From a virus (taxonomy: Duplodnaviria; Heunggongvirae; Uroviricota; Caudoviricetes): a stretch of DNA of 44,891 nt. A model generated the notes under the pieces. That model was not told the origin of the DNA and made no database searches. It saw nothing but the letters and a program-made list of their open reading frames with translations. Shown here one piece after another: positions 4,413 to 17,443 of this stretch. Where the stretch lies: the IMG/VR virus record IMGVR_UViG_2802429240_000008, one strand, 5' to 3'. A program made the position numbers and the translations under genes. The stretch's first letter is position 1, and each line of letters begins with the position of its first letter.

Positions 4413-4470
4413 AAAAAGGGCGGCAGAGCAGTCACGGAGTAAAACTGATTCCGCCAAACGCCACCAGAAA
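4413..4470 (-). ncRNA. dicF: DicF small RNA (53 nt, 4418-4470) plus 3' U-tract
   Basis: Reverse complement of 4418-4470 is TTTCTGGTGGCGTTTGGCGGAATCAGTTTTACTCCGTGACTGCTCTGCCGCCC, about 2 mismatches from the E. coli K-12 DicF sequence as I remember it, followed by TTTTT; located downstream of small dicB-operon-like ORFs. Confidence 0.8.
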
Positions 4471-11248: not shown

Positions 11249-11371
11249 CCTGACCTGAGGCATTCACTACGGTAGGAATTGCGATGGCGGTGGCGCTGGT
11301 GGTGCATTCGATTTGCCGATGGGGATAAAAACGGTTTGCGGGAAAAGGAGAGTTAAGTAGAATTGCTGCGG

Positions 11372-11516
11372 GTGCTTGAGGCTATCTGCCTCGGGCATGA
11401 ACACCAACGGCAGATAGATAAAAGCCCCACCCGACTATAAATCGAAGTGAGGCCCCTATATGCTCGTCACATATAGATTGCCTCTTACGGACCGAAAGGT
11501 CAAGGAGAAGCAGGCT
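11372..11516 (+). promoter_or_regulatory. hok mRNA 5' leader with in-frame upstream start (mok-like, ATG 11460); expected location of an antisense Sok-like RNA
   Basis: GCTTGAGGCTATCTGCCTC resembles the 5' end of hok-family mRNAs as I recall it; 8-bp inverted repeat tatctgcc/ggcagata; in-frame ATG at 11460 gives a 70-codon ORF. Confidence 0.4.
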
Positions 11517-11672
11517 ATGAAGCAGCAAAAGGCGATGTTAATCGCCCTGATCGTCATCTGTTTAACCGTCATAGTGACGGCACTGGTAACGAGGAAAGAC
11601 CTCTGCGAGGTACGAATCCGAACCGGCCAGACGGAGGTCGCTGTCTTCACAGCTTACGAACCTGAGGAGTAA
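11517..11672 (+). CDS. hokD: Hok/Gef family type I toxin (51 aa)
   Basis: MKQQKAMLIALIVICLTVIVTALVTRKDLCEVRIRTGQTEVAVFTAYEPEE: single TM helix and conserved C-terminal Hok motif; appears to match HokD (RelF) from memory; AAGGAGAAG RBS. Confidence 0.85.
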   Translation: MKQQKAMLIALIVICLTVIVTALVTRKDLCEVRIRTGQTEVAVFTAYEPEE

Positions 11673-12499: not shown

Positions 12500-13549
12500 G
12501 TGCGGGTATTACTTCGACCTGTTCCGGTACCGGAACTTGGGCTGGTGGTGCTAAAACCGGGCCGTGAATCCATGCGGGTATTTCATAATCCTCGCGTGCT
12601 GGTGGAGCCGGAACCAAAAAGCATGTGCGGCCTGCCATCCGGAGTCGTCCCTGCAGTTCGCCAGCCGCTGGCGGAGGATAAATCATTACTGCCATTTTTC
12701 AGCGATGAGCGGGTGATTCGTGCTGCTGGCGGCGCTGGTGCACTGTCTGACTGGCTGTTGCGTCATGTCAAATCCTGCCAGTGGCCTCATGGTGACTATC
12801 ATCACAGTGAAATCGTCATACATCGTTACGGTACCGGCGCGATGGTGTTATGCTGGCACTGCGACAACCAGCTGCGTGACCAGACCTCCGAATCACTCGG
12901 GCAACTTGCTCACCAAAACCTGTCAGCATGGATGATTGACGTCATACGCCATGCAATGAATGGCACGCAGGAGCGGGAATTATCGCTGGCTGAATTATCC
13001 TGGTGGGCGGTCTGCAATCAGGTAGCGGACGCGCTACCGGAGGCAGTATTACGTCGTTCTCTGGGGTTACGTGCTGAAAAAATCCGCTCGCTTTACCGCG
13101 AGAGTGACATCATACCGGGAGAGCAGACAGCCACCAGTATACTGAAGCAGCGCACAAAAAATATTGTGCTACCGCCTCACGCCCACCAGCAACAGAACCC
13201 ACCACAGGAAAAGACGGAGGTCAGCATTGCCGTTGATCCGGAGTCTCCGGAATCTTTCATGAAGCGACCTAAACGTCGCCGCTGGGTAAATGAGAAATAC
13301 ACGCGCTGGGTGAAGACACAGCCGTGTGCGTGTTGTGGTAAGCCAGCTGACGATCCCCATCACCTGATTGGTCATGGTCAGGGCGGAATGGGTACAAAAG
13401 CGCATGACCTCTTTGTGTTGCCTTTGTGCAGAAAGCATCACGACGAGCTGCATGCGGATACCGTGGCATTTGAAAAGAAGTATGGCTCCCAGCTGGAGCT
13501 GATATTTCGTTTTATCGATCGTGCGCTGGCAATTGGCGTATTGGCGTAA
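12500..13549 (+). CDS. DUF968-like protein (YdfU-like, 349 aa)
   Basis: GTG start with GGAGG RBS; Cys/His-rich C-terminus (CACCGKPADDPHHLIGHGQGGMGTKAHDLFVLPLCRKHHDELH); same size as K-12 YdfU as I recall, and located just before Q. Confidence 0.6.
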   Translation: MRVLLRPVPVPELGLVVLKPGRESMRVFHNPRVLVEPEPKSMCGLPSGVVPAVRQPLAEDKSLLPFFSDERVIRAAGGAGALSDWLLRHVKSCQWPHGDYHHSEIVIHRYGTGAMVLCWHCDNQLRDQTSESLGQLAHQNLSAWMIDVIRHAMNGTQERELSLAELSWWAVCNQVADALPEAVLRRSLGLRAEKIRSLYRESDIIPGEQTATSILKQRTKNIVLPPHAHQQQNPPQEKTEVSIAVDPESPESFMKRPKRRRWVNEKYTRWVKTQPCACCGKPADDPHHLIGHGQGGMGTKAHDLFVLPLCRKHHDELHADTVAFEKKYGSQLELIFRFIDRALAIGVLA

Positions 13550-13562
13550 GTGGAGAACGAGC

Positions 13563-14315
13563 ATGAACCTTGAAGCCTTACCAAAATATTACTCCCCAAA
13601 ATCGCCAAAATTGAGCGATGACGCACCGGCGACAGGCTCAGGTGGTTTAACGATTACGGATGTGATGGCTGCGCAGGGGATGGTGCAGTCGAAAGCACCG
13701 CTTGGGTTTGCCTTATTCCTGGCAAAAGTTGGTGTTCAGGATCCTCAGTTTGCTATTGAAGGCCTGCTCAATTACGCGATGGCACTGGGTAACCCGACAT
13801 TGAACAAATTGAGTGAAGAAACACGGCTGCAGATTATTCCTTATCTCGTGAATTTTGCCTTTGCTGATTATTCTAGGTCTGCGGCAAGTAAGGCTCGCTG
13901 TGAACATTGTGCAGGTACGGGATTTCATAATGTATTGCGCGAAGTGGTGAAACACTACAGAAGTGGGGAATCTGTTATCAAGGAAGAATGGGGGAAGGAA
14001 CTATGTCAGCATTGCCATGGTAAGGGCGAAGTCAGCACAGCGTGCAGAGGGTGTAAGGGTAAAGGTATTGTCCTGGATGAAAAAAGAACCCGGCTTCATG
14101 GCGTACCGGTTTATAAGTTTTGTGGGCGTTGTAATGGAAACAGGTTTAGTCGTTTACCGACCACACTGGCACGACGTCATGTCCAGAAGTTGGTACCGGA
14201 CCTGACAGATTATCAGTGGTACAAGGGGTATGCGGACGTCATTGATAAACTGGTAACAAAGTGCTGGCAGGAAGAAGCGTATGCAGAAGCACAACTGAGA
14301 AAAGTGACAAGATAA
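13563..14315 (+). CDS. Late-gene antiterminator Q-like protein (250 aa)
   Basis: ATG at 13563 with GGAGA RBS; several CxxC zinc-binding pairs (CEHCAGTG, CQHCHGKG, CRGCKGKG, CGRCNG); position upstream of the lysis genes. Confidence 0.7.
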   Translation: MNLEALPKYYSPKSPKLSDDAPATGSGGLTITDVMAAQGMVQSKAPLGFALFLAKVGVQDPQFAIEGLLNYAMALGNPTLNKLSEETRLQIIPYLVNFAFADYSRSAASKARCEHCAGTGFHNVLREVVKHYRSGESVIKEEWGKELCQHCHGKGEVSTACRGCKGKGIVLDEKRTRLHGVPVYKFCGRCNGNRFSRLPTTLARRHVQKLVPDLTDYQWYKGYADVIDKLVTKCWQEEAYAEAQLRKVTR

Positions 14316-15076
14316 AAGATTTTCACCGAACGATGGCGACATAACGATTGTATTTTCTAAGGAAACGTGCAAAGAGTTTTCCAATGATGAGCCTTATATG
14401 CATACCGGTGGAAAATATCAATAAGCCGCGCAGAGTGGTTTTTTTGTGGACATAAACTTTGTGCAGAACGGTAACCATTCTGGTTGCCGTGAATGCAGTT
14501 TTTTTACATTGCTGGCTTTTTTAGATTTGTGTTAGTCATTGATATTAACAAGAAGGGGAAAAGACATGCTAAAACGGCAGGATATGAAGGAAACGGTTAT
14601 GCGTGAATGTTCCAGTGTGATTAACCATATCATCTTGGGAAGCCATCCTGATGCAGGGAAGAGGTAACAGTAACGTGCATCAATCAGGCTGCAAATAAAT
14701 GGCTTACGCCGGAAATCTGGCTATCGATGTATTACCGGTTTGTTACCCATGAAGAAAATTAAGGTGATAACGAAACTGATTTTATAGGTGTCTTGTCAGA
14801 GTGTTGCGACGAAACTGGTGTTGGCAGTGTAGGGAAAATAGTAGGATGAAAATTATAAATTGCTTTAAATGAGCTTGATTTCCCTCATGTTATGAGATAT
14901 TTGTCTTATATTGCTGGTTAATTATGAAAATTTTTGTAAATCTACAGCAATAAAATCCATATTAATTAAAGCACTAGATGCGTTTCTGATTTGTGCATGA
15001 AACATACATACCATAATGATTAATTGCATCTATAATTACAGATACAGCATTGTGCTGTTAAAAAACTGGAGTCCCC

Positions 15077-15184
15077 ATGAATACATTATATGTAAGTGAT
15101 TCAAATGAAAAATCTCATGACAGGAATAAAAACAATGAGGATAGTAAGGGTAAGGATAATAAAAAAGACAACCGGAAAGAGTAA
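15077..15184 (+). CDS. Small Lys/Asn-rich hydrophilic ORF (35 aa)
   Basis: Manual translation: MNTLYVSDSNEKSHDRNKNNEDSKGKDNKKDNRKE; weak SD (CTGGAG); in the AT-rich island. Confidence 0.25.
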   Translation: MNTLYVSDSNEKSHDRNKNNEDSKGKDNKKDNRKE

Positions 15185-15219
15185 ATAATCTTTCCTGCAT
15201 AAAAATACTAGGGTGGAAT

Positions 15220-15339
15220 ATGTCAGAACATCCAGATTTTGATGACCGTAAGCCTGATGATGAGCCCGTTGAGCGTCCTGATGAGGGGCAACCATTGAAC
15301 CCTTTTTCACCGGATGATAAAAGAGAACCTATTATTTAG
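15220..15339 (+). CDS. Small acidic ORF (39 aa)
   Basis: Manual translation: MSEHPDFDDRKPDDEPVERPDEGQPLNPFSPDDKREPII; followed about 50 nt later by a strong terminator. Confidence 0.3.
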   Translation: MSEHPDFDDRKPDDEPVERPDEGQPLNPFSPDDKREPII

Positions 15340-15390
15340 ATATAGCAGAATATAGCCGTTTAAAGTAGGTTGTGTTTTGTTGCTATCCTT

Positions 15391-15419
15391 AAACCACCTC
15401 CACAGGAGGTGGTTTTTTA
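15391..15419 (+). terminator. Rho-independent terminator
   Basis: aaaccacctcc-acag-gaggtggttt followed by tttt. Confidence 0.65.
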
Positions 15420-15475
15420 CTAATGGAACATTAATTGGTAGATGTGATTGTGTACGACTTATGGGAGGCTTAAGA

Positions 15476-15661
15476 TTATTTTCTGCCAATAATAAAACCA
15501 AGCGTTAACCCTATGCTTAGAGCGACCACCACGCTAGTCAGTGGATAATTTCTAAATTTATCTTTAACGTTTTCTTTGCCTGCCTGCAAAGCATCGTCAG
15601 CACATGATGCATATTTTTTGACAGTATTAACTATTTCGTTTTCAGATTGATTTGAAGTCAT
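15476..15661 (-). CDS. Small tail-anchored membrane protein (61 aa) with a DUF883/ElaB-like C-terminus
   Basis: Internal ATG at 15659-15661 (the track ORF starts at a TTG); C-terminal LTSVVVALSIGLTLGFIIGRK resembles the membrane anchor of ElaB/YqjD-type proteins. Confidence 0.45.
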   Translation of the reverse strand: MTSNQSENEIVNTVKKYASCADDALQAGKENVKDKFRNYPLTSVVVALSIGLTLGFIIGRK

Positions 15662-16116
15662 GTTTGAAGTCCTGATGTTAAGTGGCTTTTTAATTATAGC
15701 AGATATGCTTTCAATGATAGGGCGAAGAGCTGTTATTGAGGTGATACTATGACCACTCAATCAACATTACATAAAATGACGTTTACTCCTGTTTGGCACA
15801 GTAGCAGAATTTTGCTTCTGCTACTGAAGTCGCTTTAGCACTAGAATATGCTGATGGATAAAGCAGTTCAGCGTATGTACTGCGTCATGCATATCGGTCT
15901 TGCAGATATGACGAGAAGGGGAGACAAGGTGTGTGTAATGTAGAAGTCTTTAAAGTGCTGCCTGGGATAACTCTATGCTGAAGTGCAATTGATAAAAGTA
16001 ACACGATAAAGGTTTTTCAATGAAGATGGCAACGTGATGCTTGCATTTTTCAAAAAATATGGATAAGATTCCCTCAATGATGGGCTTTGTATATCTGATG
16101 TTTAGAAAGAAATTAG

Positions 16117-16146
16117 AAAACCCGCTGATGAGCGGGTTTTGTGCTT
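16117..16146. terminator. Stem-loop terminator, possibly bidirectional
   Basis: aaaacccgct-gatg-agcgggtttt with flanking A/T runs. Confidence 0.55.
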
Positions 16147-16432
16147 TAAATGGGGCAATGGTGATGTTGAACCTCATCCCGGGACCCATGTCTGTTAACT
16201 TATTATTTAACTGGTGACTTAGTTATTTGCCTGATGTTTAAAATGTTTTCTTCCAGTACAATGTCCCTAAACACAATGAGTCTGCTTATTATATTATTAG
16301 CAGAGCTATTACGGCCAAAGTACAGCATAAGCTTTTAAAGCCAATCAACCAGTCATCAAGGCAGACGGGGTTATTCATAAAAACTCTCCATGTGTGATCC
16401 GATGGGGCTTAAAGTAAAAGCTTTAATATAGC

Positions 16433-16633
16433 TCATGAAAGATAAACATTGGCAGCTGAAGGTCCACGTAGACCATTGATTCGGCAAAATTCCACGCGTA
16501 ATCCTGTGGTAATTTCTTCTGCATCGCGGAGATTGAGAGCAGAAACGTGCAGCTGGACATCGATACGGCCATCGGATGGTATGATAAGACCTTTGCCGCT
16601 TTTGTAGTCAAAGGTTTTGACAATTCCTGTCAT
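16433..16633 (-). CDS. cspF: Cold-shock protein, CspA family (CspF-like, 66 aa)
   Basis: [34 protein letters not shown]...[16 protein letters not shown]: cold-shock domain with RNP-like motifs; divergent from a second csp gene. Confidence 0.8.
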
Positions 16634-16946
16634 TTTACGGGACAAAAAAAATTCCTTAATACTGATAACTTGGCGCACTATACACACGTTCCTGAAGAAA
16701 GCTATAGTTTTTTGATGGGGTTGAAGATGGCTGGATGTCTAAAATAAACATTGCTTCATATGTTCAACTATGCGTTAATGATTGCGTCGGTTTGAAGAAC
16801 AGACGATATACGAAGTAGTTTACTAAAGCAGTTCTCATTTCAGGTGTTATTCACTTATTCCTTCTTTGAGTCTCTCCAATTAAGTACGAAGTCGTTTCTG
16901 TTATACAAACCATTTATGCCGAAAGGCTCAAGTTAAGGAATGTAGA

Positions 16947-17162
16947 ATGTCAAATAAAATGACTGGTTTAGTAAAATGGTTTAACGCTGATAAAGGTTTT
17001 GGCTTTATTTCTCCTGTTGATGGTAGTAAAGATGTGTTTGTGCATTTTTCTGTGATTCAGAATGATAATTATCGAACCTTATTTGAAGGTCAAAAGGTTA
17101 CCTTCTCTGTAGAGAGTGGTGCTAAAGGTCCTGCAGCAGCAAATGTCATCATTAATGATTAA
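16947..17162 (+). CDS. cspB: Cold-shock protein, CspA family (CspB-like, 71 aa)
   Basis: [53 protein letters not shown]...: canonical cold-shock domain; AAGGA RBS. Confidence 0.9.
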
Positions 17163-17443
17163 AATTCATAGTTTGTCTGTATACGATAACGAAGAAGGCT
17201 GATGCCTGAGTGGAGATACAGACAGAGTGGTGAATATTGGATCTCTTTAATAAAGAGTAAGGAGGTCCAATACATGAAACAATGGCCAGCATATTTGGTA
17301 ATAACTTAATCAGGAAAAGTATGCTAACCATTGTGGTGAAGTGCAGGTTTGCTGCATGAATAGTTTTACAGCAGAAGCTAACTGCTGGCATAGCAAAACA
17401 AAGTGCGTAAGTGGATGACTCTCACAAAAAGCACCACAATATT

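Follow-up and report, generated by a model that had tools for sequence, protein, structure and literature searches.

Low-GC DNA between the Q gene and the conserved late-promoter module of a Qin/SfV-type prophage belongs to a composite, lineage-specific insert

Introduction

Lambdoid phages reportedly carry morons (Hendrix and Juhala), accessory transcription units set between conserved genes, often in the interval from Q to the lysis genes; stx, bor/lom and the csp genes of Qin are said to be examples. In lambda, the PR'-qut-tR' module yields a short terminated transcript, the 6S RNA, and Stx phages yield StxS (PMC7547250); the position of qut has been described (PMC6266700). Small proteins are also on record for Qin, where YnfS, YnfQ, YnfR and YnfU were detected by epitope tagging or ribosome profiling (PMC6001520; bioRxiv 10.1101/511675). 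Here we analyse 1.1 kb of low-GC (guanine plus cytosine) DNA, positions 14316-15420, that follows the Q antiterminator gene in a 44,891-nt viral sequence (IMG/VR record IMGVR_UViG_2802429240_000008; hereafter the window), a complete Qin/SfV-type lambdoid prophage.

The 1.1-kb stretch is a composite and not a single element. It makes up the left two-thirds of an insert of 1.7 kb (14316-16009) that is specific to one Qin/SfV-like prophage lineage of Escherichia and flanked by directly repeated copies of the Q tail and the late-promoter module. We call the late-promoter module next to Q copy 1 and the one beyond the insert copy 2. Between them lie two gene relics, one ren-like and one derived from an antirepressor gene, and between the relics stand two convergent units: a plus-strand pair of open reading frames (ORFs) of 35 and 39 amino acids (aa), here ORF35 and ORF39, and a minus-strand gene for a predicted 61-aa membrane protein (Table 1). 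The composite, recombination-scar nature of the stretch is well supported. The fuller account, in which old lambdoid recombination made the insert and the small ORFs are probably dispensable, we hold with a confidence slightly above even.

Set against the described systems, the region is an undescribed instance of familiar phage mosaic DNA, not a new type of system. Like morons, the ORF35-ORF39 cassette is inserted where K-12 Qin and SfV have nothing, has a lower GC content, a candidate promoter and a strong terminator of its own, and lies in the Q-to-lysis accessory zone beside the cspF, cspB and ynfS morons. Unlike them, its cargo is two orphan ORFs without homologues or sign of selection, amid pseudogene scrap, and it sits 5' of the probable late promoter, not within the late operon. 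The lambda PR'-qut-tR' arrangement recurs in the lambda-Q homologue, in the layout of copy 2 and in an intrinsic terminator that follows about 70 nt past the predicted start, yet here the module is duplicated, the canonical copy is degenerate and the conserved copy lies 1.7 kb past the Q stop codon, behind a relic of the Q tail. As in the lambda nin region, ren-like (E 1.4e-8) and Bro-N/P22_AR_C-like (E 1.4e-9) pieces are present, which normally lie just after gene P; here, in contrast, both are broken by stops, frameshift or truncation and displaced to the interval between Q and the late promoter. Finally, ORF35 and ORF39 resemble the Qin small proteins in being very short and in occupying AT-rich accessory DNA of the same prophage type, with YnfS 870 bp downstream, but they are absent from K-12, are not annotated by the Prokaryotic Genome Annotation Pipeline (PGAP) and are predicted from sequence.

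Results

The Q protein encoded upstream of the insert is a homologue of lambda Q (35% identity, E 2e-42) and shares 98% amino-acid identity with the Q of SfV, a viable phage, and 94% with K-12 QuuQ/YdfT. K-12 Qin runs from Q and PR' directly into ynfS/cspF: it aligns to the window until 14399 and again from 15952, where it becomes colinear, and 14316-16009 is extra in the window. The SfV alignment extends until 14596, with 14316-14596 colinear with the SfV region 3' of Q. The extra DNA is framed by direct repeat D1, in which 14258-14330 and 15952-16024 are 75% identical at a spacing of 1694. By alignment with K-12 and SfV, the two repeat copies have decayed reciprocally, the left one keeping the Q tail and the right one PR'/qut/tR'. 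Over the 58 nt of the Q tail, identity to K-12 and SfV is 86-88% for copy 1 and 72-76% for the right-hand relic, which contains a stop; from the stop codon to the end of the terminator it is 60-67% for copy 1 and 76-84% for copy 2.

Copy 2 matches lambda PR' in every element (-35, 17 nt, -10, 6 nt, AAYGAT-GGG). It reads TTGCAT (16041-46), 17 nt, TAAGAT (16064-69), 6 nt and AATGAT-GGG (16076-84); the -10 box is TAAAAT in most copies and TAAGAT in the window. AACGAT is a sigma-dependent pause element. A terminator with a U-run follows at 16117-16140 (-17.5 kcal/mol, z -3.25), and the segment from the -35 box to the pause is 89-91% identical to those of K-12, SfV and Ayreon, which are 93-98% identical to one another.

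Copy 1 begins 33 nt past the Q stop codon and reads TTGTAT (14348-53), 17 nt, AAAGAG (14371-76), 6 nt and AATGAT (14383-88). Its -10 box has lost the -7 T that, along with the -11 A, marks a sigma-70 hexamer, and GAG follows AATGAT where copy 2, K-12, SfV and lambda all have AAYGAT-GGG. About half of the Q-binding spacer is changed; Q binding takes place partly in the promoter spacer (PMC6266700). The hairpin at 14423-14441, although followed by U7, folds at only -8.5 kcal/mol (z -0.85) and gives no stable intrinsic terminator, its stem being mutated relative to SfV, Ayreon and Stx2c. Copy 1 thus lacks three of the four sequence hallmarks of a lambda-type PR'/qut/tR' module that copy 2 retains. 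From -35 to pause, SfV, Ayreon, K-12 and copy 2 agree with one another at 89-98% and with copy 1 at 61-67%. The Jukes-Cantor distance that separates copy 1 from the modules of SfV and K-12, 0.43-0.57, equals or exceeds the synonymous divergence (dS) of the adjoining Q gene (0.27-0.29). A distance that reaches the synonymous divergence of Q indicates that copy 1 evolved unconstrained.

In both SfV and K-12, a copy-2-type module stands immediately 3' of Q. Since Q proteins nearly identical to that of the window are served by such a module, copy 2 is the probable cognate qut and late promoter, and late transcription probably starts there. From there a terminated transcript of about 70 nt, like the lambda 6S or StxS RNA, is predicted. 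If late transcription starts at copy 2, the island precedes the late operon, separating Q from the late promoter, and is probably not the late leader. A preliminary description of the stretch had expected the late promoter directly after Q; the copy found there is degraded, and the conserved module lies 1.7 kb downstream of Q.

The interior of the insert consists largely of relics. The ren-like pseudogene, in which 10 initial codons resemble SfV orf47 and the remainder resembles ren, matches the ren genes of about 2400 E. coli genomes at about 74% DNA identity, and tblastn aligns Ren residues 29-95 to it across stops (E 1.4e-8). No intact Ren-homologous ORF (about 96 aa) was found at 14566-14852, which carries a frameshift and in-frame stops. 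In DNA the antirepressor fragment is 79% identical to the beginning of 202-aa genes that 132 E. coli genomes carry intact (tblastn E 1.4e-9), and the intact homologue has Pfam Bro-N/P22_AR_C domains. Because the usual place of ren and the Bro-N/P22AR gene is after gene P, this scrap appears to be of nin-region origin. Comparison of the island with the spacer between P and the antirepressor gene of another prophage gave only chance-level matches of 11-20 nt, and the 61-aa gene, searched as a tracer of the island's origin, returned near-identical alleles only and is an orphan confined to this island. Other E. coli prophages have intact 202-aa antirepressor homologues in their nin regions. The ren-like pseudogene carries a 32-bp deletion (14687-14718) in 3 of 19 copies.

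Between copy 1 and the pseudogene lies a segment common to SfV, mEp460/Ayreon and Stx1a/Stx2c phages (72-76% DNA identity); 14433-14594 resembles 179 phage records. It holds a hairpin with U7 at 14462-14505 (-20.1 kcal/mol, z -2.9), then a ribosome-binding site and the 10 initial codons of an SfV-orf47-like gene. The part from 14433 to 14565 may mark a boundary of recombination or serve as a second late terminator. In relatives this part lies 5' of a small winged-helix (orf47-like) gene. The inner stem of the hairpin is a perfect 10 bp in the window and mismatched in relatives.

The preliminary description had depicted the 1.1 kb as a low-GC island without a long ORF. Its GC content is indeed 36.9%, lower than in the Q gene (47.4%) and in the window (49.8%), and its longest ORF is a 69-aa minus-strand frame with a GTG start. 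The features then listed are all present at their positions; what was missed is that about half of the 1.1 kb is the decayed promoter/terminator module plus the ren-like pseudogene. The low-GC tract continues past 15420 to about 17900 (37.2% GC), so that the right boundary of the island is arbitrary. The small-ORF cassette (29-44% GC) differs in composition from its phage neighbours, Q having 47% and the late genes 52%.

Of 5426 complete E. coli genomes, 40 carry the island at 98.8% identity, each as a single chromosomal copy; it is also present in two isolated phages, PhiR63_1 and HannyBb. Exact look-ups of ORF35 and ORF39 returned at least 1000 Escherichia contigs. A degenerate DNA pattern for 11 residues of ORF39 matched 16 IMG/VR contigs and 5 metagenome contigs, all with an identical Q-to-lysis context, and gave no match in 185,579 species-representative genomes; the context was the same in all 24 further island copies examined. 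Nucleotide diversity (pi) is 0.002-0.010 in the island and about 0.03, three- to ten-fold higher, in the flanking Q gene, cspF and copy 2. So low a diversity indicates that the island spread once and recently, and it deprives a test of nonsynonymous against synonymous rates (dN/dS) of power. A scan of the window found no tRNA, which rules out a tRNA cluster of the sort that some Stx phages carry after Q. Rfam gave no match in 14316-15420 at gathering score, and at permissive thresholds the best island matches reached 15-24 bits against thresholds of 41-130.

Table 1. Coordinates, strands and supporting observations for features of the insert and its surroundings
Feature	Coordinates	Strand	Basis or remarks
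DicF	4418-4469		Upstream of the insert
sok/hok	11370-11519		Upstream of the insert
YdfU/DUF968 gene	12500-13549		Upstream of the insert
Q antiterminator gene, intact, 250 aa	13563-14315	+	Pfam Antiterm PF03589, E 6.6e-54
Copy 1 late promoter/qut/tR' module, apparently decayed	14348-14448	+	Alignment, folding
Hairpin with U7 (14462-14505), then orf47-like upstream region	14462-14565	+	Folding, phage alignment, Ayreon/SfV annotation
Pseudogene: 10 initial codons SfV orf47-like, remainder ren-like	14566-14852	+	Frameshift and in-frame stops
Spacer with TATAAT, candidate promoter of the small-ORF unit	14853-15076	+	29.0% GC; read from sequence
ORF35 (MNTLYVSDSNEKSHDRNKNNEDSKGKDNKKDNRKE), 35 aa	15077-15184	+	Shine-Dalgarno (SD) GGAG 15068-71, 5-nt spacer to ATG; orphan
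Antisense ORF, 69 aa (GTG, from 15310) or 64 aa (ATG, from 15295)	down to 15101	-	Hydrophobic C-terminal segment
ORF39 (MSEHPDFDDRKPDDEPVERPDEGQPLNPFSPDDKREPII), 39 aa	15220-15339	+	SD-like GGGTGG 15211-16; orphan, 44% GC
Structured 3' end	15312-15419	+	Imperfect hairpin 15312-15388 over the last ORF39 codons, then terminator
61-aa gene, predicted tail-anchored membrane protein	15476-15661	-	PGAP coding sequence (hypothetical); phrog_11629 E 5e-46
Bro-N/P22AR antirepressor-like 5' fragment, 61 codons	15749-15931	+	Two in-frame stops
Q-gene 3' relic, 58 nt, internal stop	15952-16009	+	Right arm of direct repeat with 14258-14315; tblastn, Q residues 233-250
Copy 2 late promoter module, conserved, lambda-like	16041-16150	+	Alignment with lambda PR', K-12 Qin, SfV, Ayreon
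29-aa ORF identical to K-12 YnfS	16289-16378	-	Between conserved late terminator and cspF
cspF (-) and cspB (+), divergent	16433-17227	-/+	Cold-shock morons within the late operon

The two tandem ORFs that the preliminary description picked out, one Lys/Asn-rich and one acidic, are both where it placed them and each has an SD motif. ORF35 contains 7 Asn and 7 Lys (pI 8.1); ORF39 contains 8 Asp, 5 Glu and 8 Pro, with a net charge of -8. Folding also upheld the clean terminator reported at 15391-15419: an 11-bp stem (15391-15415) with a U-run at 15413-15418 folds at -17.3 kcal/mol (z -4.3), a value matched by none of 200 shuffles, and has U6 on the plus strand only. A matching 46-bp sequence in 12 other genomes proved to be merely a similar hairpin after an unrelated methylase gene.

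These ORFs could form a moron, with genuine small proteins made in the lysogen from their own sigma-70 promoter, ended by their own terminator and of benefit to host or phage. We consider this a real but minor possibility. Of the moron proposal in the preliminary description, the anatomy of the last 400-570 bp (14853-15420) stands, and what fails is protein relatives and purifying selection. On the anatomical side, the AT-rich cassette, missing at the matching position of K-12 Qin and SfV, has a TATAAT (15031-15036) placed 41 nt 5' of the ORF35 ATG and invariant in 25 copies, and the same Qin region encodes validated small proteins close by, YnfS among them. Gene callers behind GenBank records and the automatic pipelines applied to PhiR63_1 and HannyBb call both ORFs as hypothetical proteins. 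Against this, the -35 box is weak (ATACCA, 15008-13), promoter-like matches in the region number 12 versus 13.8 expected by chance, the GC content of ORF35 (28.7%) is that of the adjacent non-coding spacer (29.0%), two pseudogene relics flank the cassette, and PGAP annotates nothing beneath the 1.1-kb island, neither ORF included.

Database searches fall on the same side. ORF39, padded to 41 aa, retrieved only two near-identical clusters in a word-indexed search of 5.8e9 proteins and only the same sequence in an exhaustive HMMER search of 1.84e9 representatives, and ORF35 retrieved only six clusters, at 97-100% identity, from the 5.8e9 proteins. With tblastn against 50,697 phage and 72,556 plasmid records, ORF39 found only two near-identical phages. 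Neither ORF matched a Pfam, NCBIfam, PHROG or PADLOC family, the sub-threshold PHROG match of ORF35 having E 0.36, and a literature search returned no mention of the ORF35 or ORF39 peptides, PhiR63_1 or HannyBb. Conservation of the small ORFs in related prophages, which had been proposed as a check and whose absence at the protein level was to refute the idea, thus does not extend to any protein-level relative beyond alleles of about 97-100% identity.

Variation among these alleles points the same way. Across 25 aligned copies the two ORFs have three variable sites, two of them in ORF35, all non-synonymous. Radical alleles are common in the databases (S23G in 104 contigs, P28H in 92, E35G in 21, D8Y in 11, S9L in 10), and frameshift alleles occur in an A6 run and near the ORF39 stop, with P0002 and P0009 listed for ORF39. 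In the aligned copies and database alleles together, a selection test made no constraint visible in any frame; divergence was too low for it. The A6 homopolymer lies at 15165-15171 in ORF35, where alleles P0008 and P0009 differ by an indel that changes or fuses frames; such indel alleles could be real variants or assembly errors.

Several observations count against the account we favour, in which the ORFs are dispensable and copy 2 is the late promoter. The GC content of ORF39, 44%, is distinctly above its surroundings. In 2000 dinucleotide shuffles of 14853-15420, a post hoc test, ATG ORFs of at least 35 aa averaged 1.38 against 5 observed (P about 0.001), and two SD-led ORFs on one strand were equally rare (P about 0.001); the segment looks stop-codon-depleted on both strands. 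The cassette has a perfect -10 box and a strong terminator 52 nt past the stop codon, and each of 25 aligned copies has both ORFs intact. The roughly 1% divergence of the island is too low for a missing selection signal to argue strongly for lack of function. As to the promoters, copy 1 has an alternative register, AAGAGT with an 18-nt spacer and AATGAT retained, from which weak activity is possible, and which copy fires, and whether Q acts on it, is read from sequence conservation alone.

On this evidence ORF35 and ORF39 appear to combine a moron-like anatomy with an absence of evolutionary support. They are probably young orphan ORFs that, being equipped with SD motifs, may be translated and are probably dispensable. 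A bolder version, that they are newly born, lineage-restricted small proteins, a disordered pair of one basic Lys/Asn-rich and one acidic Pro-rich member expressed from an autonomous prophage cassette in lysogens, strikes us as unlikely; in that case the structured 3' end might additionally give a stable RNA.

The preliminary description also entertained a long structured leader. Late transcription would then start near 14383 in copy 1, and Q-modified polymerase would read through every terminator of the island to produce a 1.7-kb 5' leader. A PR'-like module does lie at the expected site with TTGTAT and AATGAT kept, several terminators follow as in a Q-controlled leader, and the 3'-terminal 123 nt (15300-15422) fold with unusual stability, at -39.3 kcal/mol versus -21.4 for shuffles (z -5.66). 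The idea is nevertheless very unlikely given the lost -7 T and diverged Q-binding spacer of copy 1, its 60-67% identity to modules that are mutually 77-96% identical, and its divergence at or above the neutral rate. The conserved late promoter lies beyond the island, in the copy that is colinear with K-12; the interior is pseudogenic, and no Rfam leader family matches.

A similarly small chance attaches to an RNA product, either a 3' fragment of about 110 nt (15312-15418) or a unit of about 375 nt acting as a prophage small RNA. The same fold comprises two adjacent hairpins with a U-tail, and StxS is a precedent for a prophage small RNA arising from early termination (PMC7547250). The 3' untranslated region with terminator (81 nt) is the island's lowest-diversity segment (pi 0.001, a single variable site). 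However, only one or two sites underlie this low diversity, which is not significant, and with one variable site per element covariation is unavailable. Rfam has no match here either, and the majority allele at 15327 (A to U) falls in a predicted stem, where pairing is lost if the partner is U.

Least probable is that the 64-69-aa minus-strand ORF is a real gene, co-transcribed with the 61-aa gene through the hairpin, with ORF35 and ORF39 as its shadows: it spans both small ORFs, pairs a hydrophilic N-terminus with a C-terminal transmembrane segment like the adjacent 61-aa gene (grand average of hydropathy 0.82), meets only UUU at the hairpin on the minus strand and makes 15143 A>G (104 contigs), 15236 A>G and 15176 A>G synonymous where the plus frames make them non-synonymous, but its exact sequence is not in a 15-billion-protein collection and matches no family, its GTG start has no SD and its ATG start only AAGG, alleles disrupt it (L44P in 21 contigs, Q19* in 3, M6I in 2 with the ATG lost), and its hydrophobicity follows automatically from lying antisense to Lys, Asn and Asp codons.

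The convergent 61-aa gene has a TATAAT -10 box, the reverse complement of 15693-15698, and runs towards the hairpin terminator used by the small-ORF unit. Some sources name it DUF883; its match to Pfam DUF883_C (E 0.14, 12.3 bits) falls under the cut-off of 27. Its protein cluster includes E. marmotae.

Copy 2 is followed by cspF, by cspB with a cspA-type 5' untranslated region, by a lysis cassette and by head and tail genes of lambda-like type. Over the 5' untranslated region and coding region of cspB, Rfam gives a cspA thermoregulator match of 150.8 bits. YnfS, encoded between the late terminator and cspF, is a small protein validated through epitope tagging (PMC6001520). Relative to lambda Q, about 43 aa that include extra CxxC motifs are inserted in the Q protein of the window, and they match the Pfam DnaJ-type CXXCXGXG zinc finger (E 5e-8). 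A prophage copy in E. coli STEC299 (L001 963-2764) has IS100 (istA/istB) inserted upstream of ydfU; the window is without IS100.

Discussion

We propose that the duplicated junction of Q tail and PR', enclosing scrap from a nin region, arose when an SfV-like phage long ago recombined with a Qin-like one. Selection would then have retained the Q reading frame on the left and promoter, qut and terminator on the right, and two tiny convergent units may have persisted, or arisen, inside the scrap. Rightward transcripts that enter from the Q mRNA or start at TATAAT 15031 would stop at the hairpin with U7 (14462-14505) and at the 15391-15419 terminator, and those stops would keep the late promoter region dependent on Q.

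For annotation, this means that in the lineage, which includes isolated phages and prophages of O121:H19 Shiga toxin-producing E. coli, the working late module probably lies 1.7 kb beyond the sequence adjacent to Q. A late promoter displaced in this way affects predictions of Q-dependent late or cargo expression. The two orphan ORFs suggest no new mechanism and are cheap candidates for small-protein screens; were they newly born proteins after all, they would be a natural case of new small genes born in recombination scrap, between an antiterminator gene and a displaced late promoter. The reciprocal decay of the duplicated Q-tail/PR' junction offers a clear, small example of how a mosaic joint in a lambdoid phage is resolved.

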